A stretch of 64,000 nt of DNA from Escherichia coli (GTDB lineage Bacteria > Pseudomonadota > Gammaproteobacteria > Enterobacterales > Enterobacteriaceae), in NCBI RefSeq assembly GCF_044647545.1, contig NZ_CP172818.1; one strand, given 5' to 3'. This document shows positions 1 through 19,386 of the stretch, in pieces (positions within the stretch are counted from its first letter, which is position 1; each line of letters begins with the position of its first letter). Below the pieces are notes generated by a model. The model was not told the DNA's origin and did not search any database. It saw only the letters and a program-made list of their open reading frames with translations. The position numbers and the translations under genes were made by a program.

Positions 1-8
1 TAATAAAA

Positions 9-920
9 TTAATTGTGCTGCCCGTGAATATTAAAAAACAGGCGGTGCGTTTTTCCTGGTTCCAGTAATAATAAGTCGATACCTGAATTAAAGGCGTTAG
101 GCGGGCAACTCATAGGTTCAACTGCCAGTCCCTGACGCTGTAATTTTTCTCCGCTATAAACCTGCACCCAGGGTTGATCGGAACAGAGGCTCACCGAAAG
201 CGCCTGTTGTGGATGGGTAATGGTTATTTCCCACAGATCATTAGCGGTTTTAAAGGTATGGTCTATTTTTGTCGCGGCTATTTTTGTCGCCCGCGTGAAA
301 TTTAAATTCAGCTCATCAACGTGGTGAAGCGTTGTCGGATTTGCGTGCTCATCGACGGCATAAACCTGTTCTGCCGGAAGCTGGAAAAGATAGTCATCAA
401 CAGATGTTAAGTTGCAGGTTAAATAAGGATGAATACCCACACCATAAGGTGCGGTCACAGTACCAATATTCTGGCTTGCGATCTCAACGGAAAGGCCCGT
501 GCGAGCGTTGAGCGAATAAACAACCTGCGAAGCCAGCATAAACGGATAGCCGTAACTGGGCGGCAGAAAAGCTGTCAGGGTAACGCTGGTGGCGGTTAAT
601 TCGCTAATTTGCCAGTCACGCCAGGCAAGCAGCCCGTGAATAGCGGCTTTTGAACCATGTTCATTAATGGGTAACTGATATTCCTGCCCCTGATAGCGAT
701 AACAGCCGTTGGCGATCCGGTTCGGCCACGGAATAAGCACTTTACCCAGATGCGCCAGCGGCATCTCTTCGGGTTTGTGCGGGATGACTAAATGACAACC
801 CTGAAAGGTTAATTCAGCCAGACCAGCACCAACCGTCACGATAGTCGCGTGATAATCCCCCGCGGCAAGTGAAACGGTTTGTCCACTGCAATGCATGTTG
901 GTGATTTGCATACGAGGCAC
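9..920 (-). CDS. yihR: Aldose-1-epimerase family protein (sulfoquinovose mutarotase); start codon uncertain (GTG at 920 or ATG at 911)
   Basis: ORF track 303 aa; position immediately downstream of yihS in the sulfoquinovose cluster; stop TAA at 9-11. Confidence 0.8.
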   Translation of the reverse strand: MPRMQITNMHCSGQTVSLAAGDYHATIVTVGAGLAELTFQGCHLVIPHKPEEMPLAHLGKVLIPWPNRIANGCYRYQGQEYQLPINEHGSKAAIHGLLAWRDWQISELTATSVTLTAFLPPSYGYPFMLASQVVYSLNARTGLSVEIASQNIGTVTAPYGVGIHPYLTCNLTSVDDYLFQLPAEQVYAVDEHANPTTLHHVDELNLNFTRATKIAATKIDHTFKTANDLWEITITHPQQALSVSLCSDQPWVQVYSGEKLQRQGLAVEPMSCPPNAFNSGIDLLLLEPGKTHRLFFNIHGQHN

Positions 921-978
921 CTTTATTGAATAACGACATACCCGGCATGTAGCCTGATATGCCGTTATTTCAGCTCAG

Positions 979-2220
979 TTATTTCGCATTCACGTCCAGC
1001 AGACCCGCCGCAACTGCCGGAGCCAGGCCTGGCGCTAACGGGATACGCGGGATCACCAGGCAATGCAGCAGGTGATAAATATCCTGTTTGCCGTCCCAGA
1101 CTTTGGTGGTGACCTTATTGTCCGCATCCAGCTCCTGCCACCAGGAACCATTTTCATAGTCCATCAGGTACTTAATGCAGTACTCCCACCATGTCTGATA
1201 CCAGGTTTCGTACTGGCGATCGCCGGTGACGGTGTAGAGCGCGTAAGCCGTACCCATCGCCTCGACGATAGGCCAACGCACACGTTCGCGAACGACCGGT
1301 TTTCCTTCCCAGTCAACGGTATAAACAATCCCGTCCGCACCATCGGGCGCCCAGGCATCGCGCACGGTGGCGTTGAACAGACCTTTGGCATCTTCTAACA
1401 GCCAGGCTGGCGGCTGTTCGCCGCGGGCTTCCAGGGCGGCATGGATGTGCAGCATTAAACGACCCCACTCGATCCAGTGGCCTGGCGTGCCTCCGAATGC
1501 GCGGAAGCGGTGCGCCGGGTTATCTTTGTTGTAATCCGGCAGCGGATTCCACTGGGTATCGAAGTGCTCGTTAACGCGATAATGATTATTTCTGGCGACG
1601 TCGTGGATAATGACGGAAGCCACGCGAATCGCGCGATCCAGCCATTTTTTGTCATGGGTGACGTCATAGACAATCAGGAAGGCTTCCACCGCGTGCATAT
1701 TGGCATTGCCGCCGCGATACTCTTCGGTTTTGCTGAAGGCTTCATCCCAGGACTCCAGGCACATCTGCTCTTCTTCGCTCCAGAAGTATTTCTCGATAAT
1801 TTCAATGGTGTAATCGAGCAGCTTGCGCGCTTCCGGGTGACCCGTTGTGACGGCACTGGCGGCACCCAGCAGGGCAAAGAAATGTTGATAGCCCTGTTTG
1901 GAGGCATCCACCACGCCCTCGTCATTCACACAGGCATACCAGCCGCCATATTTTTTATCGCGCAGTGCGCCATTCATGGCTTTGATACCGTGATCAACCA
2001 ACGAGTAAGCGCCAGGGCGGCCCATCGCCGCAGCAACGGAATAAACGTGCAGCATACGGGCGGTGATCCACAGATGCGTGCCCATCTCTTCTTTGATTTG
2101 CCCTTTATTGCCCAGCCAGCCAAAGCCAGTCGGCACCACGGCATTCTTACCAAAATCAAAGATGCGATCGGTTTCCTGTTCCAGCCAGCGGTTGTGACTT
2201 AAGGTGTTAAACCATTTCAT
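979..2220 (-). CDS. yihS: Sulfoquinovose isomerase
   Basis: 413 aa ORF with ATG start, length matches E. coli YihS; conserved synteny. Confidence 0.9.
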
Positions 2221-2235
2221 TTTTGTATCCCCATC

Positions 2236-3114
2236 TTAACGGCGTTTAGCCATCATTTCGTCGACGATATCGCCAAGTTGTTGTAATTTCGGTGCGCAAA
2301 CGTCACGCAGCATCAGCTCGTTGTCTGGTAAACCGACAACCGATGCCCAGACGGCACGACCAGCCAGGAAGCCCGATGCACCCGCTGTCATTGCCACGCG
2401 TACGGCACGCGGGAACAGTTTTTCGTCGACACCGGAAGAAAGTATCACCCACGGCATATTGATATGGTCATTCAGACGTTGTGAAGCACTGAGAAGCTCT
2501 TGTTGCGGACCTTTACCGTAAAGCGGCATTTCAACTTTGTAGAGGTCAGCGCCACTGTCGCCCAGCTCTTTGGCAGCATCGATGATCGCTTGTTCGCGAT
2601 CGAATTTATCGCCACGACGTGGTGGGCGGACGACTGGCTCAATAATGCTTACCAGGCCGTGTGAGTGGCACAGTTCGTTAAACTCTTTCACCATATCCAG
2701 ACGTTGCTGCGCATCTTCATCACTACGCCACAGCACCAGCAGTTTTAAGGCTTTGCCACCGTCTTGTTTGATTTGTAGCGGATTGATTTTGCGGTCAATG
2801 ACCACGCTATCTACCGGAATACCGTTGCCAGGAATGAACTCATCGGCGGCGACAATCATGGCGCAACTTTTGGCAATCGCGTTTTGCTCAACCACCTGGC
2901 GGTAACAGAATTGTTGATCTACCAGAATCGCCGAGGCATAAGGCGAGAGGGTCTTCGCCGCGTTAACTTTGAAATCAGTTAAAACGCTATCGGCTACCGG
3001 AGCGGGTGCGCCAGCCGCGGCAAACATCATGCGCATGGCTTCGCGCTGATCGACCGCCAGCATGGCAAAACCGCCCGATGCGCGCGTAATGTCGTTGATG
3101 GTGTACTTATTCAT
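2236..3114 (-). CDS. yihT: 6-deoxy-6-sulfofructose-1-phosphate aldolase
   Basis: 292 aa ORF, length and synteny match YihT. Confidence 0.9.
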
Positions 3115-3137
3115 TCATTTATTCCTTTATCCAGTCG

Positions 3138-4034
3138 TTACATTTTTACTTTGGCAGTCATCCCGGCACTGACACGGACCTGTTCCAGAATGGCGGACCA
3201 GTCCTGGCGACCGCGACCCGCTGCGCGCGCCTGGCTATAAACCTCCCGTGAGGCGGCCCCCAGCGGCATTGGCACATGCAGCTGGTTGGCGACATCAAGG
3301 GCGATACCAAGATCCTTATGGGCAAGATCGATCATGAAGGCGGGAGAAAGATCCCCGCTGAGGACTTTGTTTGGCCAGGAAGTGGTGAAGTGGCCTTTAC
3401 CGGCGGCGGTACCGCTCATCACCTTGACGGCAACATCGAAGGGAAGATTCAGGGCTTCGCACAAAACGGCGGCTTCTGCCGAAAGCGCATTGAGCGCGAT
3501 GCTCATGTAGTTGTTGATGAGCTTAACGCGGATCCCCATGCCCGGACCGCCCGCGTTGATCAACTCACTGCCCATCGCCATCAGGATCGGTGTGGCGCGT
3601 TCAACTTGTTCAGCGGTGCCGCCAGCCAGCAGTAACAGAGTACCGGTAATGGCATTTGCAGAAGTACGGCCTACCGGAACATCCATCATGCTGAAGCCTC
3701 TGGCCTGCATATCAGCAATCAATTTATCGGTTTGCAGTGGGTGGATGGTCGACATATCAATGACCAGCGCATCGGAAGATAAGCTCTCACAGACACCGTT
3801 TTCACCGAACAACACGTGACGCACCAGATCGCCATTCGGCAACATGGTAATGATAAATTCGGCACCTTTAGCGGCCTGCGCCGGGTTGGCGGCGGGAGTC
3901 GCACCTTTGTCTACCAGATGCCGCACAGCTTCGGCGTTCACATCAAAGACGCGAAGTTGATGCCCTTGCTGCAATAAATTGCTCGCCATTGGCGAACCCA
4001 TTTGCCCTAAACCGATAAACGCGATTGCTGCCAT
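3138..4034 (-). CDS. yihU: 3-sulfolactaldehyde reductase (NAD-binding, GxGxxG at N-terminus)
   Basis: 298 aa ORF starting [13 protein letters not shown] (Rossmann motif); synteny. Confidence 0.9.
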
Positions 4035-4201
4035 AACCCTCTCCTGAATACAGTAATGTCACTTTTTGTCATTTATGACATGCCTTGCTTGTCTGTTTTT
4101 GATCGTATTTGTAATTTATCGTCAAAAAATTGACAGCCGTCACTTTTTAAACAATTGGTGAAATTAAAATGAACGCATCCCAAAATGCTTAAGGAATGAC
4201 C

Positions 4202-5098
4202 ATGATTCGTGTTGCTTGTGTAGGAATTACCGTGATGGATCGCATCTATTACGTGGAAGGATTGCCGACGGAGAGCGGTAAATACGTGGCGAAAAATTAT
4301 ACGGAAGTTGGCGGCGGGCCAGCGGCTACAGCAGCAGTTGCGGCGGCCAGACTAGGTGCGCAGGTCGATTTTATTGGTCGCGTCGGTGACGACGACACAG
4401 GCAACAGCCTGCTGGCAGAGCTGGAATCCTGGGGCGTTAACACCCGTTATACCAAACGGTATAACGAGGCGAAATCTTCGCAATCCGCCATCATGGTGGA
4501 TACCAAAGGCGAGCGGATAATCATTAACTACCCCAGCCCGGACTTGCTGCCTGACGCAGAGTGGTTGGAGGAAATTGATTTCTCTCAGTGGGATGTTGTG
4601 CTGGCGGATGTACGCTGGCACGAAGGTGCTAAAAAAGCCTTCACCCTGGCCCGGCAGGCGGGCGTGATGACTGTTTTGGACGGGGACATTACGCCGCAGG
4701 ATATCAGTGAGCTGGTGGCATTAAGCGATCATGCGGCCTTTTCAGAACCGGGTCTGGCGCGCTTAACGGGGGTGAAAGAGATGGCCAGTGCGCTAAAACA
4801 GGCACAAACGCTCACAAATGGTCATGTCTATGTGACCCAGGGCAGTGCAGGCTGTGACTGGCTGGAGAATGGCGGGCGACAGCATCAACCGGCCTTCAAA
4901 GTTGATGTGGTAGATACCACAGGAGCGGGTGATGTTTTTCACGGCGCATTGGCGGTGGCGCTGGCAACAGGTGGGGATTTAGCGGAGTCAGTCCGCTTCG
5001 CCAGCGGAGTAGCGGCGTTGAAATGCACGCGTCCCGGTGGACGAGCCGGGATCCCTGACTGTGATCAAACCCGATCTTTTTTGTCACTTTTTGTATAA
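4202..5098 (+). CDS. yihV: 6-deoxy-6-sulfofructose kinase (PfkB/ribokinase family)
   Basis: ORF track 4196-5098; trimmed to ATG at 4202 with AAGGA RBS at 4191-4195; C-terminal GAGD motif. Confidence 0.85.
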   Translation: MIRVACVGITVMDRIYYVEGLPTESGKYVAKNYTEVGGGPAATAAVAAARLGAQVDFIGRVGDDDTGNSLLAELESWGVNTRYTKRYNEAKSSQSAIMVDTKGERIIINYPSPDLLPDAEWLEEIDFSQWDVVLADVRWHEGAKKAFTLARQAGVMTVLDGDITPQDISELVALSDHAAFSEPGLARLTGVKEMASALKQAQTLTNGHVYVTQGSAGCDWLENGGRQHQPAFKVDVVDTTGAGDVFHGALAVALATGGDLAESVRFASGVAALKCTRPGGRAGIPDCDQTRSFLSLFV

Positions 5099-5131
5099 AA
5101 TGCCAGGGTGATGGTTTTTCGAGGAATTTTC

Positions 5132-5917
5132 ATGAGCCTTACCGAACTAACCGGTAACCCGCGGCACGACCAACTCCTCATGCTGATCGCCGAGCGTGGG
5201 TATATGAATATTGATGAGCTGGCAAATCTGCTGGATGTCTCCACGCAGACGGTCCGCCGGGATATTCGTAAATTAAGCGAGCAAGGACTGATTACGCGCC
5301 ATCACGGTGGCGCGGGTCGGGCCTCCAGCGTCGTTAATACGGCGTTTGAGCAGCGTGAGGTTTCGCAAACTGAAGAGAAAAAAGCGATTGCCGAAGCGGT
5401 GGCAGACTATATTCCTGATGGATCGACAATATTTATCACCATCGGTACGACTGTTGAACATGTTGCCCGGGCGTTACTTAACCACAATCATTTGCGGATA
5501 ATCACCAACAGCCTGCGTGTGGCGCATATTCTTTACCACAACCCGCGCTTTGAAGTGATGGTGCCTGGCGGAACGCTGCGTTCCCATAACAGTGGGATCA
5601 TTGGCCCTTCAGCGGCGTCCTTTGTGGCCGATTTTCGCGCCGATTATCTGGTAACAAGTGTAGGCGCAATTGAGAGCGATGGCGCGTTGATGGAGTTTGA
5701 TGTAAACGAAGCTAACGTGGTGAAAACGATGATGGCGCACGCGAGAAATATTCTGCTGGTCGCCGATCACACTAAGTATCATGCTTCGGCGGCGGTTGAA
5801 ATTGGTAACGTGGCACAGGTTACCGCGCTCTTTACCGACGAGCTGCCGCCCGCTGCGCTAAAATCACGCTTACAAGACAGCCAAATTGAAATCATCCTTC
5901 CCCAGGAAGACACGTAG
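5132..5917 (+). CDS. csqR: DeoR-family transcriptional regulator of the sulfoquinovose operons
   Basis: ORF track 5108-5917; trimmed to ATG 5132 (GAGGA RBS at 5121-5125) giving 261 aa; N-terminal HTH, DeoR C-terminal domain. Confidence 0.85.
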   Translation: MSLTELTGNPRHDQLLMLIAERGYMNIDELANLLDVSTQTVRRDIRKLSEQGLITRHHGGAGRASSVVNTAFEQREVSQTEEKKAIAEAVADYIPDGSTIFITIGTTVEHVARALLNHNHLRIITNSLRVAHILYHNPRFEVMVPGGTLRSHNSGIIGPSAASFVADFRADYLVTSVGAIESDGALMEFDVNEANVVKTMMAHARNILLVADHTKYHASAAVEIGNVAQVTALFTDELPPAALKSRLQDSQIEIILPQEDT

Positions 5918-6015
5918 AATTTTGTGACCGTTGACCTGCCTTCATACCTGGCCACATAGCCAAACCCATCCTTTCCCGCTACAGTTAATTTCTTGTGGCG
6001 CGAAAGGAGGCAAAA

Positions 6016-6615
6016 ATGCTCTATATCTTTGATTTAGGTAATGTGATTGTCGATATCGACTTTAACCGTGTGCTGGGGGCCTGGAGCGATTTAACGCGTG
6101 TTCCACTGGCTACGCTTAAGAAGAGTTTCCACATGGGCGAGGCGTTTCATCAGCATGAGCGTGGGGAAATTAGCGACGAAGCGTTCGCAGAGGCGCTGTG
6201 TCATGAGATGGCCCTGCCGCTAAGCTATGAGCAGTTCTCCCACGGTTGGCAGGCGGTATTTGTTGCGCTACGACCGGAAGTGATCGCCATCATGCATAAA
6301 CTGCGTGAGCAGGGGCATCGCGTGGTGGTGCTTTCCAATACTAACCGCCTGCATACTACCTTCTGGCCGGAGGAATACCCGGAAATCCGTGATGCTGCTG
6401 ACCATATCTATCTGTCGCAAGACTTGGGTATGCGCAAACCTGAAGCACGAATTTATCAGCATGTTTTGCAGGCAGAAGGTTTTTCACCAGACGATACGGT
6501 CTTTTTCGACGATAACGCCGATAATATAGAAGGAGCTAATCAGCTAGGCATTACTAGTATTCTGGTGAAAGATAAAACCACCATCCCGGACTATTTCGCG
6601 AAGGTGTTATGCTAA
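6016..6615 (+). CDS. yihX: HAD-superfamily alpha-D-glucose-1-phosphate phosphatase
   Basis: ORF track 5995-6615; trimmed to ATG 6016 (AAGGAGG RBS 6004-6010) giving 199 aa; N-terminal DxG HAD motif. Confidence 0.85.
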
Positions 6616-7481
6616 AAACCATTCAGGACAAAGCCAGGCATCGTACCCGTCCACTATGGGCCTGGCTAAAACTACTCTGGCAACGCATTGATGAGGACAA
6701 CATGACAACCCTGGCAGGTAACCTTGCCTATGTGTCGTTGCTCTCATTAGTGCCGCTGGTTGCCGTTGTTTTTGCGCTTTTCGCCGCTTTTCCCATGTTT
6801 TCCGACGTCAGCATTCAGTTGCGTCACTTTATTTTTGCCAACTTTCTGCCTGCTACTGGCGATGTTATTCAGCGGTATATCGAACAATTTGTTGCCAATT
6901 CCAACAAAATGACCGCCGTCGGGGCGTGCGGGCTGATCGTCACGGCGTTATTGTTGATGTACTCCATCGATAGCGCGTTGAATACCATCTGGCGCAGCAA
7001 ACGAGCGCGACCAAAAATTTACTCGTTTGCCGTGTACTGGATGATTTTAACGCTGGGGCCGCTGCTGGCAGGGGCCAGTCTGGCGATCAGTTCCTATCTG
7101 CTCTCCCTGCGCTGGGCGAGCGATCTCAATACTGTCATCGACAACGTGCTGCGTATTTTTCCGCTGCTGTTGTCGTGGATCTCCTTCTGGTTGCTGTACA
7201 GCATTGTTCCTACCATCCGCGTACCTAACCGCGACGCGATTGTCGGCGCGTTTGTCGCTGCACTCCTGTTCGAAGCAGGAAAGAAAGGTTTCGCGCTTTA
7301 TATCACCATGTTCCCGTCATATCAGCTCATTTACGGCGTGCTGGCGGTGATCCCCATTCTCTTTGTCTGGGTCTACTGGACATGGTGTATCGTCTTGCTT
7401 GGCGCGGAAATTACTGTCACTCTCGGGGAATACCGCAAATTAAAACAAGCTGCTGAACAAGAAGAAGACGACGAACCATGA
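6609..7481 (+). CDS. yihY: YihY/BrkB family inner membrane protein
   Basis: 290 aa ORF, multi-pass hydrophobic; overlaps yihX stop (coupled). Confidence 0.85.
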
Positions 7482-7915
7482 TTGCATTAATTCAACGCGT
7501 AACCCGTGCCAGCGTCACCGTGGAGGGAGAAGTGACGGGCGAAATTGGCGCGGGACTTTTGGTGTTATTGGGTGTCGAAAAGGATGACGACGAACAGAAA
7601 GCAAACCGTCTGTGCGAGCGTGTGCTCGGCTACCGCATCTTTAGCGATGCCGAAGGCAAGATGAATCTCAACGTGCAACAGGCGGGCGGCAGTGTACTGG
7701 TGGTTTCCCAGTTTACTCTCGCCGCAGATACCGAACGGGGGATGCGCCCAAGTTTCTCCAAAGGCGCATCACCGGATCGCGCAGAGGCGTTATATGACTA
7801 TTTCGTCGAACGCTGCCGTCAGCAAGAGATGAACACGCAAACAGGACGCTTCGCTGCGGATATGCAGGTATCGCTGGTCAATGATGGCCCCGTGACATTC
7901 TGGTTGCAGGTATGA
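7478..7915 (+). CDS. dtd: D-aminoacyl-tRNA deacylase
   Basis: 145 aa ORF starting [12 protein letters not shown] overlap with yihY. Confidence 0.9.
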
Positions 7916-8901
7916 GCCAGCTTCCAGGGTTGTCACGGGAAACAAGAGAGAGTATCGCTATGTATCACCTTCGGGTTCCACAAACAGAAGAAGAATTAGA
8001 GCGTTACTATCAGTTTCGCTGGGAAATGTTGCGTAAGCCCCTGCATCAACCGAAAGGTTCGGAACGCGACGCGTGGGATGCGATGGCGCATCACCAGATG
8101 GTCGTCGACGAGCAGGGTAATCTGGTGGCGGTAGGCCGACTGTATATTAATGCCGACAATGAAGCGTCCATTCGCTTTATGGCCGTTCATCCCGACGTGC
8201 AGGACAAAGGGTTAGGAACGCTGATGGCGATGACCCTCGAATCTGTGGCGCGTCAGGAAGGTGTTAAGCGCGTGACCTGTAGCGCCCGCGAAGACGCGGT
8301 GGAGTTTTTCGCCAAGCTGGGGTTTGTTAATCAGGGAGAAATCACCACGCCAACCACCACGCCGATTCGCCATTTTTTGATGATTAAACCCGTTGCCACT
8401 CTGGATGATATTTTGCATCGCGGCGACTGGTGCGCGCAGCTGCAACAGGCGTGGTATGAACACATCCCGCTGAGTGAAAAAATGGGCGTGCGCATTCAGC
8501 AATATACCGGGCAAAAATTTATCACCACCATGCCGGAAACAGGCAATCAGAATCCGCATCACACGCTGTTTGCCGGGAGTTTATTCTCGCTGGCAACGCT
8601 CACCGGTTGGGGGCTTATCTGGCTGATGCTGCGCGAACGCCACCTCGGCGGAACGATTATTCTGGCGGATGCGCATATCCGCTATAGCAAGCCGATTAGC
8701 GGCAAACCTCATGCGGTAGCCGACCTTGGTGCCTTAAGCGGCGATCTCGACCGTCTGGCGCGTGGACGAAAAGCACGGGTGCAGATGCAAGTAGAAATCT
8801 TTGGCGACGAGACGCCGGGTGCAGTGTTTGAAGGCACGTATATCGTTCTGCCCGCGAAGCCATTTGGCCCGTATGAAGAGGGCGGGAACGAAGAAGAGTA
8901 G
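7912..8901 (+). CDS. yiiD: GNAT acetyltransferase / thioesterase fusion protein
   Basis: 329 aa ORF; overlaps dtd stop; length matches YiiD. Confidence 0.85.
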
Positions 8902-9750
8902 CGTTGGCAGGTGCATTGCACTCCTTGCCCCTGTCATGCGGTGATACAACGCTTCACCTTCATCGCAAAGTGGGTCGTATTCAGCGGTAATGATATGTAC
9001 AGGTGGCAAGCCATTGAAATCATCGCGCCAAAGAGGGCTGGCTTCAGGATGCCTGCGTTCAATGCCTGGCAGGTACATCTCAAAGCCGCTCAGTAAAGTG
9101 TCGCGTGTGATGATGTAATCGTGACGATTGCGTATGTAGCTTTCGAAATGCGCAGTCGCATCAAGCATGGGATAAATTAAGATGACCGAGTTGTGCCGGT
9201 TGCCACTCGCCAGCACGCTTTAATCGCAAAGCAGTTACCAGCGCCAGATGTCCGCCCGCACTGTCACCGGCAAGAGTTATCCGTTGTTTATCAACGCCGA
9301 GTCGTTCGGCGTGTTGCCGACTGAATTCTGCACCTCGTTGCGCATCATCATGGGCGGCGGGGAAAGTATGTCCGGTGCCAGCCGATACTGGACGGCAATA
9401 ACCCGACATTGCCCGTAATAGGCTAACTGGCGCAGCTGGTTGTCGTGAGTTGCGAACCCGCCGCTAACAAAACAGCCACCGTAGTAATAAATTATCGTCG
9501 GGAGTAATGTCGGGGCATTCAGCGGTGACACTATTCGTAAGGTCATCGCTTCAAGTTCGATAGTCTGAATATCTACCCGCGTTTCTGTCTCACCCGCAAG
9601 GACAGCGCTGGCGATATAGCCCTCCCTGCGCTGCGCAATACTTTGTTGACGCGATGAGGGGCGACCCGCAGCGATAAACTCTTCGACTAACTCTGCAATT
9701 CCTTTTTCAGTGCCATAGTAGAACTCATTTTGCTGTATGAATGTACAGTT
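8734..9750 (-). pseudogene. Alpha/beta-hydrolase (Aes/HSL-family esterase-lipase) remnant, frameshifted at ~9372 and ~9188, no start codon in the N-terminal frame, 3' end overlapping yiiD
   Basis: HGGG-region (IIYYYGGCFVSGG) in ORF 9277-9546, GDSAGG nucleophile motif in ORF 9161-9409, DPLCDEGE acid motif in ORF 8734-9216, each in a different frame on the minus strand. Confidence 0.6.
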
Positions 9751-9945
9751 TTATACACCCGTTTTTACTGGATGGATACAGGGAAATTCACGGGCGTGAA
9801 AAATCTGGAAAGCGCCTCGCAAATGTAAAGACAAACCCGGCAGAGATGTGGTTTTGCTGGAGCACTATCAGTAAGCTAGTGGTTTCAAGGGTACGTCAAT
9901 GACGTACAGAAGGGGTTTATTTATCTAAGCCAATGGCGTATAATT

Positions 9946-10256
9946 ATGCTCTTCATCGAAACGGAAATTTTTACTGAAGATGTTCAAAAACTGCTGACCG
10001 ACGATGAATTCAGTCGTTTTCAGTTTTTCCTGGCCTTGAATCCTGACTATGGTGAGGTAATACCTGAAACTGGTGGGTTAAGAAAGGTTCGATGGGTGTC
10101 AGGAGGAAGGGGAAACGTGCTGGTGTCAGGGTTATTTACTTTCATCAGGTTAAACATTATGAGATCAGATTACTGCTTATTTATCGTAAGGGTATTAAAG
10201 ATAATATCTCTCCCCAGGAAAAAGCAATGCTCCGGTTGTTAAATACGAGGTGGTAA
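9946..10256 (+). pseudogene. HigB/RelE-like type II toxin, inactivated by a 1-nt deletion in an A-run at ~10113-10116
   Basis: ORF 9946-10242 turns to nonsense after GGRG; shifting +1 at the A-run restores KRAGVRVIYFHQVKHYEIRLLLIYRKGIKDNISPQEKAMLRLLNTRW ending at TAA 10254-10256, 0 nt before the antitoxin ATG. Confidence 0.6.
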
Positions 10257-10547
10257 ATGGATAAGGCACTTTTTGAGCGGTTGACTCACAGCATGGCCCA
10301 GATGAATGAAATTATTGAAGGAACGCGACAGCCTTCGCGGACTTTTGAAGTTGATGCTATGAAAATCAAAGAAATACGCCGCGCTTCAGGGTTGTCACAA
10401 TCTAAATTTGCCGATCTTATTTCTGTAAGCGTAGACACGTTGCGTAACTGGGAGCAGGGGCGACGTTCGCCGACCGGGCCTGCAAAGGCTTTGCTGCGAG
10501 CGATTGCCAATGATCCGCAACATGTGCTGCAAGCACTTAACCGTTAG
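10257..10547 (+). CDS. XRE-family HTH antitoxin-like DNA-binding protein (HigA-like partner)
   Basis: 96 aa ORF; HTH region IRRASGLSQSKFADLISVSVDTLRNWEQGRRSP; immediately downstream of the toxin remnant. Confidence 0.65.
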   Translation: MDKALFERLTHSMAQMNEIIEGTRQPSRTFEVDAMKIKEIRRASGLSQSKFADLISVSVDTLRNWEQGRRSPTGPAKALLRAIANDPQHVLQALNR

Positions 10548-11150
10548 AGGCATGGTTATGCCATACAGAAAGCACCAGCATTCAGAACTCCTGTGAAAGC
10601 GGCGTAGTGCCACCTGCTCAGGAGTTTTGCTATGACCCGTAATCAGTGCTGACCGTTGCCACCCTATGATGCGATTAAAAAAACTCATCGTCGCGCCGAT
10701 GATTGACGTCAATGCTATCGGATGATACCGGGGGTGTTCCAGAAAGATCCAACTTTCCCGAACTGTTACCAACAAAATTATAACGATGAGCAAGTTAAGA
10801 CCGGTTGGTAGCAGTACTGACCGGTCTGTGATGGATGATTAATTTCACCTTAAATCCGGGTGCTGTTAGGATGCTGACATTTTTCGGCTACACCATTCAG
10901 ATTATGCAAATAAAGATCCAATCAAAAAATAAACATCCCTGTATATAATATATTTATAGCACCCATATCTCATCCTGGGCGATAACCCAACCATTTTTGA
11001 TTAACAAATGAAACAACTGCAACGTTCTTATTATTTCTGGAAAACGTCTCGCAAAAACAAAACAGCATGCAAAAATCCGCTTTTTTTAAATGATTTTTCG
11101 GCGTAATTTTCGCACATACATTAATGAGTAATATATGTAAGGTATTGGTA

Positions 11151-11369
11151 ATGGCGATGAATACGGTTTTTCTTCATTTATCAGAAGAGGCAATTAAACG
11201 GCTGAACAAGCTTAGGGGCTGGCGTAAGGTTTCACGATCTGCAATTTTACGCGAAGCGGTTGAGCAATATCTGGAGCGGCAGCAATTTCCGGTGCGTAAA
11301 GCAAAGGGTGGCAGGCAAAGGGGGGAGACAGTAGTTGTTGATGATCAGTGTAAGGAGCATAAGGAATGA
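11151..11369 (+). CDS. Small ribbon-helix-helix (CopG-like) protein, 72 aa, yiiE/yiiF family
   Basis: ORF track 11124-11369; trimmed to ATG 11151 to give 72 aa; N-terminal VFLHLSEEAIKRLNKL resembles RHH beta-strand/helix. Confidence 0.55.
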   Translation: MAMNTVFLHLSEEAIKRLNKLRGWRKVSRSAILREAVEQYLERQQFPVRKAKGGRQRGETVVVDDQCKEHKE

Positions 11370-11578
11370 CAAAAAATTTATTATTCTTGAATATAAAAAC
11401 CAGATGCCCTTATTCTGGTATTAATACAAGGCTGTTTTACTTGAACTTATAATAACTGCAACTGTTACATCATATCTGGAAAACGCCTCGCGAAATACGA
11501 GAGTTTGGAATAGCAGGTGTCGTCATACCCTATGAACTGTAATCCGGGCGACCAGCGCCACCCGGAAAACGTCAGAGA

Positions 11579-12508
11579 TTACTCCCCTTCACCCGGAAAC
11601 AGGAACGGGTTGATGGAACTACGGGCATAGCCTTCTTGCTCCATTCGCGCGTCCAGTACCAGAGAGGCGAGGTCATCTGCCACGGCTTCAACTTTCGGTT
11701 CTTTTTCCTGATAAAGAATCTTCAGGTAAGTGCCGCAGTCATCGCAGCTTTCGGCTTTAATCGCGGCCTGTTCGTCATCCAGCGACCAGTAATGCAGTTT
11801 GCCGCTTTGTTCACAGTTGCTGCATTTTACGCGTACTACGTGCCATTCAGTTTCACACAGGTTGCAGTGCAGGTAACGCAGCCCCTGAGTGGTGCCAATT
11901 TGCACCATGCTGGACACCGGCATAGAACCACAAACCGGGCAATATTGACGTTGTTCGCCATATTCCGCACGCGCTTTGCCGGGGATCAGATTGGCCATCT
12001 GCGCCCAGTAGAGCGACAGTGCAGCCCAGATAAACGGCGCTTTATCGCTGCTGACGGACGAGAAATCAGAGGCAAACAGTGCGCTGGCCATATCTTCCAG
12101 CTCCTGAGTCGATGCCTTCTCCAGATTCTCAATCACTGCCAGCGCCGGGCCGCTCATTTCAGGTTTCAGCTCAGCAATCAGCGCCATCAGCAGCTTTTGC
12201 CAGTGCTTATCACGCGGCAGAACGTGAATATCCAGCGGGGGCTTGCCTTGTGCGCTGGCTTCTTTAATGCGCGTGGTCAGATCCATCTCCAGCGGATGGT
12301 CGTACAGCACCACTTCCTGGGCGTGGGCGATAAGCGCAGCAAAGCGCAGGTAATCACCCAGCGGATTATTTTCTGCCAGCTCGCGCAGACGCTCGGCGCG
12401 GCGGTTGTATAAATTCTTGAGCCGAGGGAACAATAACGGCGGAATCATATCCGCCGTACGTTTCTCGCTCGAACCCAGCTCATCTTGCGGGATTATGCGA
12501 ATACTCAT
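11579..12508 (-). CDS. fdhE: Formate dehydrogenase accessory protein FdhE
   Basis: 309 aa ORF with paired CxxC motifs; synteny downstream of fdoI. Confidence 0.9.
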
Positions 12509-13140
12509 TCAGCTTTCTTTTCCGTTGTCTTGCGGACCTCACGGTACCAGCGCGGGTGATGTTTCTTCGCCCAGGCGCTGGTAACCCATCCTTCCACCAT
12601 GGCGGTAATCGTGCCTTTCACCCAAAGGGCGGCGTAGATATGCACCATGATAACCACAATTAACGCCACTGCGGCAAATGAATGCAGCATTAACGCGAAT
12701 CGGATCACCGGGATTGAGAAAGCAGGTGCAAAATAAGGACGCCAGATAATCACGCCGCTCACCAGCAGCAGAACCAGGAAAATAATCGCCGCCCAGAAAA
12801 CGCATTTCTGACCGAAGTTATAACGCCCGGTGTCACCTACTTCCTCGTTGACGACGATCTTACGAATATTCTTCGCCCAAAAGATATCATCCCGATTGAT
12901 TAGGTTGTGATGCCAGTAACGGAAAAACATGATGATGAACGAGGCAAACATAACCACGCCGACAAACGGGTGCAGAATGCGCGCCAGCTGCGGTGTGCCC
13001 ATGATTTGCATCAACCAGTTGAAGGACGGGAACAAAAAGCCCAGCCCGCTCACCGCCGCCAGGATGAAGCAGAAGGCGGTGATCCAGTGGTTGATACGTT
13101 CCGGCGCGGTGTAGCGCACGATGGTGTCACGTCGTTTCAT
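12505..13140 (-). CDS. fdoI: Formate dehydrogenase-O cytochrome b556 subunit
   Basis: 211 aa membrane ORF; 4-nt overlap with fdhE and fdoH. Confidence 0.9.
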
Positions 13141-14039
13141 TTGCGCTCCTCGTCTTTCTCTTCGTGCAGATTATTCTCTTCCTCATCCGCACGGTTCGGA
13201 CCGACACCCACGTAGTGGAAGATACTGGCCGCAAAGGTAGCCGCAAAGCCAACAGCCGCGAGCGGTTTCCAGATGCCTTTCCAGAATTTCACGGTTTCGC
13301 TGATTTCCGGGTTCTCCGGCAAGCCATGATACAGATTTGGCTTGTCAGCATGGTGCAGCACGTACATAACATGTGTACCACCGACGCCTGCCGGGTCGTA
13401 CAAACCCGCATTGTCGTAACCACGGGTTTTCAGCTCCGCCACGCGCTCGCTCGCCAGCGTTTTCATCGACTCTTTCGTACCGAAGTGAATCGCGCCCGTT
13501 GGGCAGGTCTTCACGCAGGCCGGTTCTTGCCCAACCACCACGCGGTCAACGCACAACGTACATTTGTAGACGCGGTTGTCTTCCGGGTTGAGGCGCGGAA
13601 TGTCGAACGGACAGCCCGCAATGCAATAACCGCAGCCGATGCACTGCTCGGACTGGAAGTCGACGATACCGTTGGCATACTGAATAATTGCCCCTTCCGC
13701 CGGGCACGCTTTCAGGCAGCCTGGATCGGAACAGTGCATACAGCCGTCTTTGCGGATCAGCCATTCCAGTTTGTCGTTCTGCTCCACTTCCGAGAATCGC
13801 ATCACCGTCCACGATTTGGCACTTAAATCATTGGGGTTGTCGTACACCCCAATGTTATTGCCGACGGTATCGCGAATGTCGTTCCACTCTGAACACGCCA
13901 CCTGACAGGCTTTACAGCCGATACAGGTGGTAACGTCGATGAGTTTCGCCACTTCTTCCTGGAAGTCCCGCGCCTGAGGCGCGGGGGTCAGACCGTTAGT
14001 CGCGGAACGACGAATGATATCTTGCGATTGATAAGCCAT
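13137..14039 (-). CDS. fdoH: Formate dehydrogenase-O iron-sulfur subunit
   Basis: 300 aa ORF with multiple CxxCxxCxxxCP ferredoxin motifs. Confidence 0.9.
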
Positions 14040-14051
14040 ATGTCGTCTCCG

Positions 14052-17000
14052 TTACACCTTTTCCACATTCACAAGGAAGGACTTAAACTCCGGCGTCTGC
14101 GTGTTCGCATCACCCACGAATGGCGTTAACGTATTGGCAATAAAGCCTTTTTTCGCAACGCCTTCATAGCCCCAGTGAATCGGAATACCGATGGTATCGA
14201 TATCTTTGCCGTTCGCTTTCAGCGTGCGAATACGTTTGGTCACCACCGCTTTGGCTTTGATATAGCCACGGTTGGAGGAGACTTTCACAGTATCGCCCTG
14301 GGCAATGCCAAGTTTATTCGCCAGCGACTCCCCGATTTCCACAAACTGCTCTGGTTGCAAAATCGCATTCAACAGCGCGTGTTTGGTCCAGTAGTGGAAG
14401 TGCTCGGTCAGACGATAGGTGGTTCCGACATACGGGAACTTATCGGCTTTACCCAATGCTTCGGCGTCGTCTTTAAAGATACGCGCAGCCGGGTTCGAGA
14501 TAACGTTTGGATGCAGCGGGTTAGTTCCCAGCGGCGTTTCAAACGGCTCGTAGTGTTCCGGGAACGGACCTTCCGCCATCTTATCGAGGGCAAACAGACG
14601 TCCCATGCCTTCCTGCTGCATGATAAACGGCCCTACGCCGCTGCCCGGAGGCGCTGCGCTGTAGTCCGGAATATCCCAGCCGGTCCACTTAGTGCCGTCC
14701 CATTTCAGCAACTGACGCTTCGGATCCCATGGGTTACCCTGCGGATCTGCGGAGGCGCGGTTATACAGAATGCGGCGGTTAAGCGGCCATGCCCATGCCC
14801 AGCCCAGCGTGTTACCGAGGCCAGACGGATCGGCGTTATCACGACGCGCCATCTGGTTACCTTCTGGCGTCCAGCTACCGGCGAAAATCCAGCAGCCACA
14901 GGAGGTCGTACCGTCATCGCGCAGTTGGGCGAACGAGCTAAGTTGTTGGCCTTTCTTGACGATAACCGCACCGGTTGCCGGATCGGTAATATCGGCCAGC
15001 GCCTTACCGTTGCTCTCCATCGCCACTTCTTCCGACTTCGGCTCATGCGGAATGGCGTAGTTCCAGGTCATATTCAGCACCTGGTCCGGGTTTGCGCCAC
15101 CCTGTTCGGCATACATCTTGCGCAAGCGCAGGAAGATACCGGAGAGGATCTCGCCATCAGTCAGCGCAATCCCTGGGGCGTCCGCACCTTTCCAGTGCCA
15201 CTGTAACCAGCGACCGGAGTTAACGATTGAACCGTTCTCTTCTGCGAAGCAAGTCGATGGCAGACGGAACACTTCGGTCTGGATCTTCGACGAGTCAACT
15301 TCGTTCAGCTCACCGTGGTTCTGCCAGAAGTTAGAGGTTTCAGTGTTCAGCGGGTCGATGGTGACGAGGAACTTCAGTTTCGACAGACAGCCGATCACTT
15401 TGTTTTTGTTCGGGAATGAGGCAACAGGGTTAAAGCCCTGGCAGATATAGCCATTGACCTTGCCCTCTTTCATCATCTCGAAGTATTGCAGGACGTCGTA
15501 GCCTTTATCCCACTTCGGCAACCAGTCAAAGCCCCAGTTATTTTCCGCCGTCGCTTTATCACCAAAGAAGGCCTTCATCATGGAGACGAAGAATTTCGGG
15601 TAATTGCCCCAGTAGTTAACCTGGCCTTCCAGCAGTGGTTTCGGCGTGTTGGCGGTAAGGTAAGTTTGCAGATCGGTCTGCTTCTCGCTTGGCAACGTCA
15701 TGTAACCTGGCAGACTCTGCGACAGCAGCCCCAGGTCGGTCAGCCCCTGAATATTGGAGTGACCGCGCAGGGCGTTAACGCCGCCGCCAGCCATCCCCAT
15801 ATTGCCGAGCAGCAGCTGGATCATCGCCATCGTACGAATGTTTTGCGCACCAATGGAGTGTTGCGTCCAGCCGAGGGCGTAGAGGAACGACGCTGTTTTA
15901 TCGTGAGCACTGGTTTCGGCGATGTATTCGCAGACTTTCAGGAACGCGTCTTTTGGCGTACCGCAGATGTTTTCAACCACATCTGGCGTATAACGGGAAA
16001 CGTGCTGTTTCAGCAAGTTCCACACGCAACGTGGATGTTGCAGCGTGGTATCGCGTTTGGCGAAGCCGTTTTCGTCCAGTTCGTAAGTCCAGGAGGATTT
16101 ATCGTACTTGCGTTTTTCCGCGTCGTAGCCGGTGAACAGGCCATCTTCAAAGCCGTAATCCTCACGCACGATCAGGCTGGCGTTGGTATAGGCTTCGGTG
16201 TATTCGCGGTTGAATTTTTCATTGTTCAGCAGGTACAGCAATACGCCTGACAGGAAAGCAATGTCAGTCCCGGAACGAATAGGGGCATAGTAGTCAGCCA
16301 CCGCCGCCGTACGTGTAAAGCGAGGATCGATCACAATCAGCTTCGCGCCGTTGTGAATTTTGGCTTCCATCGCCCAGCGGAACCCGACCGGGTGAGCTTC
16401 AGCGGCGTTACCGCCCATCACCACGACGAGGTTGGCATTCTTGATGTCGACCCAGTGGTTGGTCATCGCACCGCGACCAAATGTTGGAGCAAGACTTGCT
16501 ACCGTTGGTCCGTGTCAGACACGCGCCTGGTTGTCGACCGCGAGCATACCCAGCGCGCGGGAGAATTTTTGCGTTAAATAGCCGGTTTCGTTACTCGACG
16601 CGGAAGCACACAGCATCCCGGTGGAGAGCCAGCGGTTAACAGTCACGCCTTCGGCGTTTTGCGCAATGTAGTTCGCATCGCGGTCTTCTTTCATCAGTTT
16701 GGCGATGCGATCAAACGCCTCTTCCCAACTGATTTGTTGCCATTTATCAGAACCTGGCGCACGGTATTCCGGAAACTTCAGGCGGCTTTCGGAGTGGATG
16801 AAATCCACCAGGCCAGCGCCTTTCGGACAAAGTGCTCCGCGGTTGACCGGGTGATCCGGGTCACCTTCGATATGGAAGATAGATGCTTTGGCGTTTTTTG
16901 CTCCGTCACCGAGGCTGTACATCAACAGCCCACAGCCTACGGAACAATAGGTGCAGGTATTACGGGTTTCGCGGGTGCGCAGCAGTTTATACTGCCGGGT

Positions 17001-17102
17001 TTCCGCGAGTGCTACGCTGGGTGCAAAACCCAGTGCCGCTGCCGTGGTGCCTGCCATACCGCCAGCGCAGATCTTAAAGAACTGCCTTCTGCTGACCTGC
17101 AT
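14052..17102 (-). CDS. fdoG: Formate dehydrogenase-O catalytic subunit, selenocysteine-containing (in-frame UGA at 16515-16517), Tat signal
   Basis: ORFs 16515-17102 and 14052-16466 are in the same frame separated only by TGA; context ARV-U-HGPTVA; N-terminal RRQFFK twin-arginine motif; total 1016 aa. Confidence 0.9.
16470..16514 (-). promoter_or_regulatory. Putative SECIS stem-loop immediately 3' of the fdoG UGA
   Basis: mRNA CACGGACCAACGGUAGCAAGUCUUGCUCC follows UGA and contains the inverted repeat AGCAAG/CUUGCU; position expected for bacterial SECIS. Confidence 0.45.
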
Positions 17103-17295
17103 GGATTGCTCCTTGTTTCGACATTGTCACGTCCCATTTACATTCGCTTGCTGCGTGTGCAGGGAGTGGGAGTTATTTTTCTTTGCGGAAGGGGCCGCAA
17201 AGGTCCAGAATTGGCTCAATTTCCCTCCATCCAGGAAGGGTTTGTAACAGAATACCATAATGTTGGTGTGTGTGTTCTTATCTGGTTAAGAGAAA

Positions 17296-18129
17296 GTGAA
17301 AAAAACACAGCAAAAAGAAATCGAAAATGTGACAAGTGTCACAGGTGTTCGTCAAATTGAGTTATGGCGGCGTGATGATTTACAACACCCACGGTTAGAT
17401 GAGGTGGCGGAAGAGGTTCCCGTTGCGCTGGTCTACAACGGCATTTCGCATGTAGTGATGATGGCGTCACCCAAAGACCTTGAGTACTTTGCGCTCGGTT
17501 TTTCGCTTTCCGAGGGGATTATCGAAAGTCCGCGCGATATCTTCGGTATGGATGTCGTTCCTTCCTGTAATGGTCTGGAAGTGCAAATTGAGCTTTCCAG
17601 CCGCCGCTTTATGGGGTTGAAGGAGCGTCGCCGGGCACTGGCGGGACGTACGGGATGTGGCGTGTGCGGCGTGGAGCAACTTAATGACATCGGAAAACCG
17701 GTGCAGCCGCTACCGTTCACCCAGACGTTTGATCTCAACAAACTGGATGATGCATTACGTCATCTCAATGATTTTCAGCCAGTGGGGCAACTGACCGGTT
17801 GTACTCACGCCGCCGCCTGGATGTTGCCATCTGGCGAACTGGTCGGCGGGCATGAAGACGTGGGTCGCCATGTGGCGCTGGACAAACTGTTAGGCCGCCG
17901 GTCACAAGAAGGGGAAAGCTGGCAGCAAGGTGCGGTGCTGGTTTCCAGCCGTGCCAGTTATGAAATGGTGCAAAAGTCAGCGATGTGTGGCGTAGAGATT
18001 TTGTTTGCGGTGTCTGCCGCGACCACGCTTGCCGTAGAAGTGGCTGAGCGCTGTAATCTGACACTGGTAGGTTTTTGTAAACCGGGTCGGGCAACGGTTT
18101 ATACCCATCCGCAGCGTTTGAGCAATTAA
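17296..18129 (+). CDS. fdhD: Formate dehydrogenase sulfurtransferase FdhD
   Basis: 277 aa ORF divergent from fdoG. Confidence 0.9.
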
Positions 18130-18136
18130 TTAAAAT

Positions 18137-18180
18137 AAGTCCTGCGAGATATATTAAATTGCAGGACTTATTCATTTCGT
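18137..18180 (+). terminator. Rho-independent terminator after fdhD
   Basis: Inverted repeat AAGTCCTGC...GCAGGACTT followed by T-rich run. Confidence 0.5.
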
Positions 18181-18281
18181 GAATTTTATTATTTTATTTA
18201 TAAACAAAACGCGTGTAGTGGCGTTTTCTTTTTTCATTTATTATGTTCACTCTCTTATCTATATATTTATAAGGCAATTAA

Positions 18282-19337
18282 ATGAAAAGGAATTTATTAT
18301 CTTCCGCTATTATAGTCGCCATCATGGCCCTCGGTCTCACGGGTTGTGATGATAAAAAAGCCGAAACAGAAACGCCCCCGCCTGCCAATAGTCAACCTGC
18401 CGCACCAGCTCCTGAAGCGAAACCTGCTGAAGCTCCCGTTGCAAAAGCAGAAGTTAAACCTGAAACGCCTGCCCAACCGGTGGTCGATGAACAAGCGGTT
18501 TTCGACGAAAAAATGGATGTCTATATCAAGTGCTACAACAAGTTACAGATCCCGGTACAGCGCAGTCTGGCGCGTTATGCTGACTGGCTGAAAGATTTTA
18601 AACAGGGGCCTACCGGTAAAGAGAGTACTGTTTATGGCATCTACGGCATTAGTGAATCCAGCCTCGCTGAGTGTGAAAAAGGCGTAAAAAGTGCTGTGGC
18701 GTTAACGCCTGCGCTGCAACCTATTGATGGCGTAGCGGTGAGTTATATCGATGCTGCCGTGGCGTTGGGTAATACCATTAACGAAATGGATAAATATTAC
18801 ACCCAGGAAAATTATAAAGACGATGCGTTTGCGAAAGGGAAAACGCTGCACCAGACATTCTTAAAAAATCTGGAAGCCTTTGAACCTGTAGCCGAATCTT
18901 ATCATGCGGCGATCCAGGAAATTAATGATAAGCGTCAGCTTGCGGAACTGAAAAATATTGAAGAAAGAGAAGGGAAAACATTCCACTACTATTCTCTGGC
19001 AGTCATGATTTCAGCGAAACAAATTAATAACCTGATATCGCAAGAGAAGTTTGATGTTGATGCGGCAATGAAGAAAGTGTCTGAACTGGAAACGCTGGTG
19101 GCGCAGGCCAAAGAAGCGGATAAAGGCGGCATGAATTTCTCGTTTATTAATTCGGCAGGCCAGTATCAACTCGAGGCTAAAAAATACGTTCGCCGCATCA
19201 GAGATAAAGTCCCGTACTCTGACTGGGATAAAGAGCAACTTCAGGACGCAAACTCAAGCTGGATGGTCGAAGACTCTTTCCCGAGAGCATTACGCGAGTA
19301 CAACGAAATGGTCGATGATTATAATCGCCTGCGTTAA
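18282..19337 (+). CDS. yiiG: Lipoprotein of unknown function (signal peptide with LTGC lipobox)
   Basis: 351 aa ORF; N-terminal MKRNLLSSAIIVAIMALGLTGC; synteny. Confidence 0.8.
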   Translation: MKRNLLSSAIIVAIMALGLTGCDDKKAETETPPPANSQPAAPAPEAKPAEAPVAKAEVKPETPAQPVVDEQAVFDEKMDVYIKCYNKLQIPVQRSLARYADWLKDFKQGPTGKESTVYGIYGISESSLAECEKGVKSAVALTPALQPIDGVAVSYIDAAVALGNTINEMDKYYTQENYKDDAFAKGKTLHQTFLKNLEAFEPVAESYHAAIQEINDKRQLAELKNIEEREGKTFHYYSLAVMISAKQINNLISQEKFDVDAAMKKVSELETLVAQAKEADKGGMNFSFINSAGQYQLEAKKYVRRIRDKVPYSDWDKEQLQDANSSWMVEDSFPRALREYNEMVDDYNRLR

Positions 19338-19358
19338 ACGTTTTTGATGATAAATGCA

Positions 19359-19383
19359 GTGTCGGATGCGGCGCATCCGACAC
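19359..19383. terminator. Bidirectional hairpin terminator between yiiG and frvR
   Basis: Perfect inverted repeat GTGTCGGATGCG/CGCATCCGACAC between convergent genes. Confidence 0.5.
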
Positions 19384-19386
19384 AGT

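Follow-up and report, generated by a model that had tools for sequence, protein, structure and literature searches.

In a 64,000-nucleotide stretch of an Escherichia coli chromosome (hereafter the window), the DNA immediately downstream of fabY (also called yiiD) encodes pieces of an α/β-hydrolase that are spread over more than one reading frame. This raises the question of which gene the pieces belong to, by which lesions it was broken and whether these lesions arose in the bacterium or in the making of its sequence record. Our analysis identifies an ordinary accessory esterase gene, whose breaks most likely arose while the record was being assembled and not in the cell.

An accessory gene for a predicted esterase

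The window covers the region yihX-yihY-dtd-fabY(yiiD) ... yiiE-fdhE-fdoIHG of E. coli. Within it, fabY is intact on the plus strand (7912-8901; the RefSeq start is equivalent to 7960) and 100% identical to the ST648-type reference. A megablast search with positions 8700-9800 found fabY throughout 5426 complete E. coli genomes and the stretch downstream of it in 2636 of the 5426. The downstream stretch is part of an esterase/toxin island, which comparison with K-12 delimits as a K-12-absent block at 8903-10749. Here, the esterase gene sits between fabY and a RelE/HigB-like toxin/NadS antitoxin pair. In its intact form, it is convergent with fabY at a distance of 63 bp and carries the RefSeq label "alpha/beta hydrolase" as an uninterrupted 909-bp gene. 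It was intact at all 15 loci inspected from diverse lineages, and other E. coli alleles of the esterase stretch are 97-98% identical to the window.

Its closest intact counterparts are the genes for WP_001318161.1 and WP_001162704.1 (302 aa; found in strains such as FDAARGOS_497 and KS-NP019, the former protein being that of FDAARGOS_497), which share locus, orientation and neighbours with the window copy. The FDAARGOS_497 gene is nucleotide-identical to it except for one substitution, one compensated pair of indels, four net frameshifts and a 160-bp deletion. Unlike these genes, the window copy is interrupted, and codons 273-302 are missing from it together with the stop codon and the spacer towards fabY.

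The original prediction of a broken esterase or lipase gene convergent with fabY was borne out by a Pfam search. The three open reading frame fragments of the window matched the Abhydrolase_3 family (PF07859) with 45.9, 57.5 and 74.1 bits at a gathering cutoff of 25, covering profile positions 1-43 (E = 7e-12), 43-103 (E = 2e-15) and 100-196 of 210 (E = 2e-20). The matches go well beyond what chance would give. The segments thus occupy consecutive positions of a single hydrolase family, and the test for a non-colinear arrangement was negative. Concatenation of the fragments after frameshift correction raised the match to 207.4 bits (E = 2.8e-61), compared with 232.8 bits (E = 4.7e-69) for the intact orthologue, which in relatives is a single uninterrupted reading frame of 302 aa.

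Among proteins of solved structure, the best relatives of the intact orthologue are the esterase Est8 (PDB 4ypv; E = 8.5e-51) and 2yh2, and 1evq and 1jji could also be aligned. The alignment with these hormone-sensitive lipase (HSL)-type esterases spans nearly the entire protein. The E. coli orthologue has the Abhydrolase_3 fold family in common with the HSL family IV esterases (Est8 4ypv, 2yh2, Est2 1evq/1qz3 and AFEST 1jji), and the GDSAGG, DPLxDEG and HGF motifs of 4ypv and 2yh2 align with it. By these motifs, the catalytic residues predicted from homology are Ser153 (GDSAGG), Asp247 (DPLCDEG) and His277 (HGFF). At the oxyanion-hole position, HSL esterases usually carry HGGG, whereas Y-G-G-C (within YYYGGCF) is found in the window as in all E. 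coli orthologues, so that the GG core is retained while the histidine and the third glycine are replaced. Judging from this homology, the DNA is an accessory E. coli gene for a predicted HSL-type (family IV, Abhydrolase_3) carboxylesterase, and the product in relatives should act in the cytoplasm as a serine carboxylesterase, with Ser153, Asp247 and His277 as its catalytic residues.

The intact orthologue did not reach the cutoffs of three more specific NCBIfam models: LipP1 (NF058653; 238.8 bits, cutoff 350), chloramphenicol hydrolase (NF033149; 163.8 bits, cutoff 500) and the acetyl esterase Aes (NF007547; 139.1 bits, cutoff 389). Its predicted place is therefore that of an uncharacterised relative within the HSL-type family and not that of an equivalog of any named enzyme. 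Aes (YbaC; PDB 4krx; NCBIfam PRK10162) is another E. coli esterase of the HSL family and is homologous to the intact orthologue (E = 5e-29). It is a paralogue at a different locus and belongs to the core genes present in K-12, whereas the accessory esterase gene is absent from K-12.

Lesions along the window copy

To place each lesion, we aligned the window base by base to the intact gene of FDAARGOS_497 and searched it with the intact protein by tblastn. Alignment, tblastn and Pfam matches together delimit an esterase-homologous stretch of 819 bp on the minus strand (8898-9716), which is colinear with one 302-aa esterase and corresponds to its codons 1-272. The reading frame begins with an ATG at 9716-9714, followed by codons 2 and 3 (M-A-L; 9708-9716). 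A G is then missing from codon 4 (GAA) between 9708 and 9707, where the reference reads ATGGCACTGGAAAAAGGA and the window ATGGCACTGAAAAAGGA. Translation from the native ATG consequently yields MALKKELQS, i.e., nine codons, and terminates at a stop codon at 9689-9687. The N-terminal frame had been thought to lack a start codon; the ATG is present, and it seemed absent because this -1 frameshift follows nine bases downstream of it.

The first long segment (9371-9707) encodes residues ~4-115 including the oxyanion-hole region YYYGGCF, as judged from its translation, the Pfam match and the alignment to 4ypv and 2yh2. On the minus strand its translation reads ...IIYYYGGCFVSGG...VQYRLAPD. It ends at a 1-bp deletion of an A in codon 115 (GAA; 9370-9371), where the plus strand of the reference reads GTATGTTCCGG and that of the window GTATGTCCGG, and which turns APEHTFP into APDILSP. 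The second segment (9188-9369) continues in the shifted frame with residues ~116-175 and reads GHTFPAA...LAGDSAGGHLALV on the minus strand. It contains a compensated +1/-1 pair at 9318-9323 (GCCAGACTAATTC on the plus strand of the reference, GCCGACTGAATTC in the window), which keeps the frame and changes LVW to FSR. The nucleophile elbow GDSAGG is located in the same segment at 9251-9268, with the Ser153 codon AGT at 9262-9260 by alignment to the solved esterases, and lies in a frame that is reached by no start codon.

A 4-bp insertion at 9184-9187 (GACC on the plus strand, GGTC on the coding strand) leads into the third segment (8929-9183), which encodes residues ~176-262 and reads VILIYPMLD...ITAEYDPLCDEGE on the minus strand. 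The two frameshifts predicted near ~9372 and ~9188 are thus present in the sequence as written and can be placed at 9370/9371 (-1) and 9184-9187 (+4). The third segment had been assigned to a third frame; because a -1 is followed by a +4, it returns to the frame of the first. It carries a substitution of Gly by Arg at 9126 and the acid motif DPLCDEG at 8956-8976, in which the Asp247 codon GAC (8976-8974) aligns with the DPLxDEG motif of 4ypv and 2yh2. Finally, a 1-bp insertion at 8928, which turns GGG into GGGG in coding orientation, brings about another frameshift; the window here reads MTGARSAMHLP... in place of the native residues, while tblastn of the intact protein recovers 11 native residues at 8930-8898 in another frame.

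The gene is also truncated at its 3' end and devoid of the C-terminal histidine region, as had been proposed. The cause is a deletion of 160 bp at 8897/8898, whose junction lies between two GTAG repeats (8897-8901) and reads GAAGAGTAGCGTTGGCAGG in the window. It removes codons 273-302 (LGVIHGFF..., including His277), the esterase stop codon and the 63-bp spacer, but preserves exactly the fabY stop codon TAG at 8899-8901, leaving FabY unchanged. The gene had further been described as overlapping the fabY 3' end. However, similarity to the intact protein extends no further than 8898, and the esterase stretch abuts the fabY stop codon. Only a chance reading frame (8734-9216, minus strand) continues antisense into fabY, because the native esterase stop is deleted, and its tail at 8734-8897 shows no homology to the intact protein. 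In the reference, the spacer holds a hairpin with a 13-bp stem (-28.7 kcal/mol, z = -2.8 by folding). A pattern scan of the reference spacer found no canonical terminator in the deleted DNA, and the lone terminator-like match inside the esterase stretch is within chance expectation. If the deletion were true, fabY would also be without the hairpin between the two convergent genes.

Altogether, the window copy carries four net frameshifts (~9707, 9370, 9184-9187 and 8928), one compensated pair, one missense substitution and the 160-bp deletion. The earlier list of lesions was correct for the two frameshifts it contained and missed those at 9707/9708, 9318-9323, 9126 and 8928 as well as the 160-bp deletion behind the 3' truncation. 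As a result, the nucleophilic serine, the aspartate and the oxyanion region fall on three separate fragments of 82-160 aa, and the copy lacks the His motif that HSL family IV esterases possess. Its DNA is homologous to Abhydrolase_3, but the product encoded as written is incomplete. Read as it stands, the window copy cannot yield an enzyme, given the stop after nine codons, three further net frameshifts and the loss of the final 30 codons, among them that of the catalytic histidine.

A private allele in a nearly identical chromosome

We searched for the window allele in 5426 complete RefSeq E. coli genomes and found it in none of them. The best genome matches reach 98.2% identity over 8860-9420 and 98.6% over 9760-11560, are of ST648 type and all keep the 160 bp. 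A chimeric product of 144 aa, which no allele other than that of the window could encode, was found on a single contig in a collection of ~15 billion proteins; for the intact protein, the number of contigs was at least 1000.

The surrounding chromosome presents a very different picture. Positions 1-8901 are 100.000% identical to FDAARGOS_497, positions 11511-24251 and 59299-64000 are likewise identical, and 26721-59291 differ by one substitution (34803), which amounts to 1 substitution and 0 indels in 60.2 kb of flanks. In contrast, the 2.6 kb between 8897 and 11510 contain 14 events, comprising 8 indels, 4 substitution/indel clusters and 2 single substitutions. Indels and complex events thus outnumber single substitutions by ~6 to 1, and clustering of this strength relative to the flanks has a Poisson probability of ~1e-26. 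For the 819-bp esterase stretch, the flank rate predicts ~0.03 events, while 7 are seen. None of the 14 variants was present in the 14 other loci examined, and none raised the identity to any complete genome. Within the same patch, the RelE/HigB-like toxin gene carries a -1 frameshift at 10106, and the NadS antitoxin gene is intact.

The positions of the events mirror the way in which K-12 homology is divided into blocks. Homology to K-12 extends over 968-8902, 10750-11495, 11516-24255 and from 25152 onward, and the event clusters occupy 8897-8901, the whole of 8928-10645, 10741-10753, 11503-11506 and 24252-25142. With two exceptions, the lone core substitution at 34803 and the REP array (26424-26720), all events fall into DNA that K-12 lacks or no further than ~10 bp from the edge of a block. 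The K-12-homologous block 10754-11502, located inside the patch, is free of events. Closer inspection of the island edge at 10741-10753 revealed that the window reads CCAGAAAGATCCAACTTTCCCG, compared with CCGGAAGGAATTCCTTGTTTCCCG in the island-type junction (9 of 9 island-carrying loci containing the anchor) and TTTAGAAAAACAACTTTCCCG in the island-less junction of K-12. This edge is a base-by-base mosaic, and each of its 7 deviations from the island type is to the variant found in K-12. Interleaving of two alleles base by base is beyond recombination, but can arise by consensus calling over misaligned reads or by reference bleed-through.

At 24252, the K-12 block edge that comes next, a second patch sets in, where 1-bp deletions accumulate and are followed by 589 bp of low-complexity sequence (24527-25115; ggggaagaaaaaaaaaaaaaaacatttgtttggggaggagaggg...) with a purine content of 81%. 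At this position, relatives carry a 1.4-kb carbohydrate porin gene, which by comparison with the relatives and K-12 corresponds to a K-12-absent block near 24256-25151. What likeness the purine-rich sequence still has to the real porin sequence is weak (-27 versus -57 to -78 for shuffles). The idea that this sequence might be a copy of the porin gene from which the pyrimidines had been lost was not supported (score of 181 versus 162-177 for shuffles). Two further features are suggestive of an assembly shaped by its reference. A 7.4-kb rhs island is absent from the window at 59292-59298, and the only contig that holds the allele has a length of 4,499,902 bp, which is ~0.5 Mb below that of most of the best-matching ST648-type chromosomes listed.

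Origin of the lesions

The pattern of the lesions suggests that they are probably sequence or assembly errors rather than the outcome of biological decay. A scaffold of K-12 type may have served as the basis on which an ST648-type genome was built, or as a template for patching it. By this route, DNA shared with K-12 would be recovered essentially perfectly, K-12-absent DNA, i.e., the esterase/toxin island and the porin gene, would be filled with low-quality sequence, and mixed reference and sample bases would be left at the block edges. Such a scheme would need a second source of error, possibly poor gap-filling or the insertion of raw long-read sequence, since K-12 has no homologous sequence inside the island and bleed-through cannot give the internal indels there. 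Perfect shared DNA, errors only in reference-absent segments, mixed edges and junk fill are all found in the window and are familiar from reference-guided assembly; the likeness is one of pattern, judged by what is generally known of such pipelines. Looking for a nanopore signature, we compared the Dam/Dcm methylation contexts around the indels by eye and saw no consistent motif, with one cluster (10203-10208) destroying a GATC. Some features of the patch also resemble real mutations, among them the 160-bp deletion between 4-bp repeats and the 1-bp indels in short runs, and the toxin gene next to the esterase gene is frameshifted too, as in decaying islands.

The latter features would be compatible with a genuine pseudogene, in which the esterase was inactivated and then decayed in situ, a slippage deletion also took the hairpin shared with fabY and the toxin gene decayed as well. 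Measured against its intact orthologues, the copy indeed carries disabling lesions in the form of four net frameshifts and the 3' deletion. The individual indels and the GTAG-repeat deletion are plausible as mutations, the toxin is frameshifted next to an intact antitoxin, the fabY stop codon is exactly preserved, and the island is dispensable, being missing from about half of E. coli genomes. Nevertheless, we consider this explanation possible but unlikely. Decay in place needs time, yet the ~60-kb flanks differ from ST648-type genomes by a single substitution and no indel. The excess of events over the flank rate and the predominance of indels and complex events over single substitutions also speak against it. 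There would be no selective reason for a compensated +1/-1 pair once the gene was dead. Moreover, the allele was seen only once among thousands of genomes while the gene is intact at every sampled locus, the events track K-12 block edges of which one is a single-base mosaic that recombination would not produce, and junk sequence lies within the same window. Taken together, these observations disfavour the earlier description of the copy as an evolutionary remnant: its lesions are private, dominated by indels, confined to the patch and aligned with K-12 edges, with junk nearby, all of which favours an artefact.

Confinement of the differences to one sharp-edged tract of 2.6 kb would also be reminiscent of recombination, by which a long-decayed island copy could have entered an ST648-type chromosome from a different lineage or species. 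A tract of foreign lineage should, however, bring 1-3% substitutions, whereas a single one is seen in the esterase part, which is otherwise the same as in ST648. In addition, the 14 variants recur in none of the other loci or genomes examined, and the 5426 complete genomes do not contain the allele. Such an import is therefore very improbable. We regard it as similarly improbable that the lesions are real and reflect a burst of indel-biased, error-prone DNA synthesis restricted to the accessory DNA of an otherwise clonal ST648-type chromosome. A burst of this kind, for example by break-associated mutagenesis at island junctions, would have struck the esterase gene, the toxin gene and the edges of the island so quickly that nothing else had time to change in ~60 kb. 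Least credible of all is that the interrupted gene is still expressed, either by way of programmed frameshifting or in the form of separate functional fragments; only the existence of three open reading frame fragments of 82-160 aa speaks for this. Four shifts of differing sign and size would be needed, and a slippery-site pattern common to the relatives is lacking, as these encode one uninterrupted 302-aa protein. Furthermore, the catalytic histidine is deleted and the remaining catalytic elements are divided among the three fragments. We give this last reading almost no credence.

The gene itself is already known as a routinely annotated, uncharacterised accessory esterase of a well-studied family, and a disrupted copy is nothing new in kind. 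Whether real or not, the broken copy is of little biological importance. Its value is that of a quality flag, marking positions 8897-11510 and 24252-25142 of the window as unreliable sequence. Pseudogenes, odd repeats and low-complexity features from these patches are suspect pending a read check. An annotation pipeline would call the copy a frameshifted, incomplete pseudogene and thereby inflate the pseudogene count of the strain. The same caution may extend to the rest of the source assembly.

The toxin-antitoxin pair and the esterase motif

Next to the broken hydrolase gene, an HSL-type (Abhydrolase_3) esterase gene, lies a RelE/HigB-like gene of 103 amino acids (window 9946-10256), which sits upstream of nadS and is adjoined by this NadS antitoxin gene (10257-10547). 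The RelE/HigB-like gene is frameshifted by a missing A at 10106 and carries a cluster of three substitutions at 10203-10208, in which a GATC is lost. Both lesions fall within the suspect patch that also contains the hydrolase (8897-11510); the gene for the NadS antitoxin is intact. The A/G-rich spacer that precedes the toxin gene on its upstream side shows six substitutions and a 1-bp insertion in 15 bp (9909-9923), and this cluster is private to the window's record.

The E. coli esterase family to which the hydrolase belongs carries Y-G-G-C in place of the usual HSL-type oxyanion-hole motif H-G-G-G. This variant is found in the intact orthologue of FDAARGOS_497, the ST648-type reference genome (L001 2766-3674), and at window 9460-9480; the window copy shares it with the two intact orthologues that were compared.

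Differences at structural breakpoints

At the right edge of the K-12-absent island (10741-10753), the island-type junction and the island-less junction of K-12 are mixed base by base, and all seven departures from the island-type junction are the K-12 state. This hybrid junction was found in none of the other loci examined. At 11503-11506, the window has 5 bp (AT and GCG) fewer than FDAARGOS_497; yiiF, which is present in K-12 at this junction, is absent from both the window and FDAARGOS_497. The 5-bp difference is one more that is placed exactly on a structural breakpoint.

Between rpmE and yiiX, FDAARGOS_497 harbors a 7.4-kb rhsC / IS1 island, which the window lacks. It is replaced by a 7-bp filler (TGGTCGT) at 59292-59298; the site could be genuinely empty, or it could have been collapsed.

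The purine-rich patch, the REP array and a core substitution

From position 24252 onward, 1-bp deletions build up relative to ST648-type genomes, forming a patch that extends to 25142. Its core (24527-25115) consists of 589 bp of low-complexity junk sequence, 81% of which is purine, at the place where relatives carry a carbohydrate porin gene of 1.4 kb. The patch at 24252-25142 looks like unreliable gap-fill rather than biology.

Compared with FDAARGOS_497, the array of REP elements between rhaD and rhaA (26424-26720) is ~163 bp longer and contains several small indels; its copy number also differs from that of K-12. Throughout ~60 kb of sequence shared with FDAARGOS_497, the only substitution is T>C at 34803, where the window has the K-12 base; this difference may simply reflect a SNP that is private to FDAARGOS_497, the strain used as reference.
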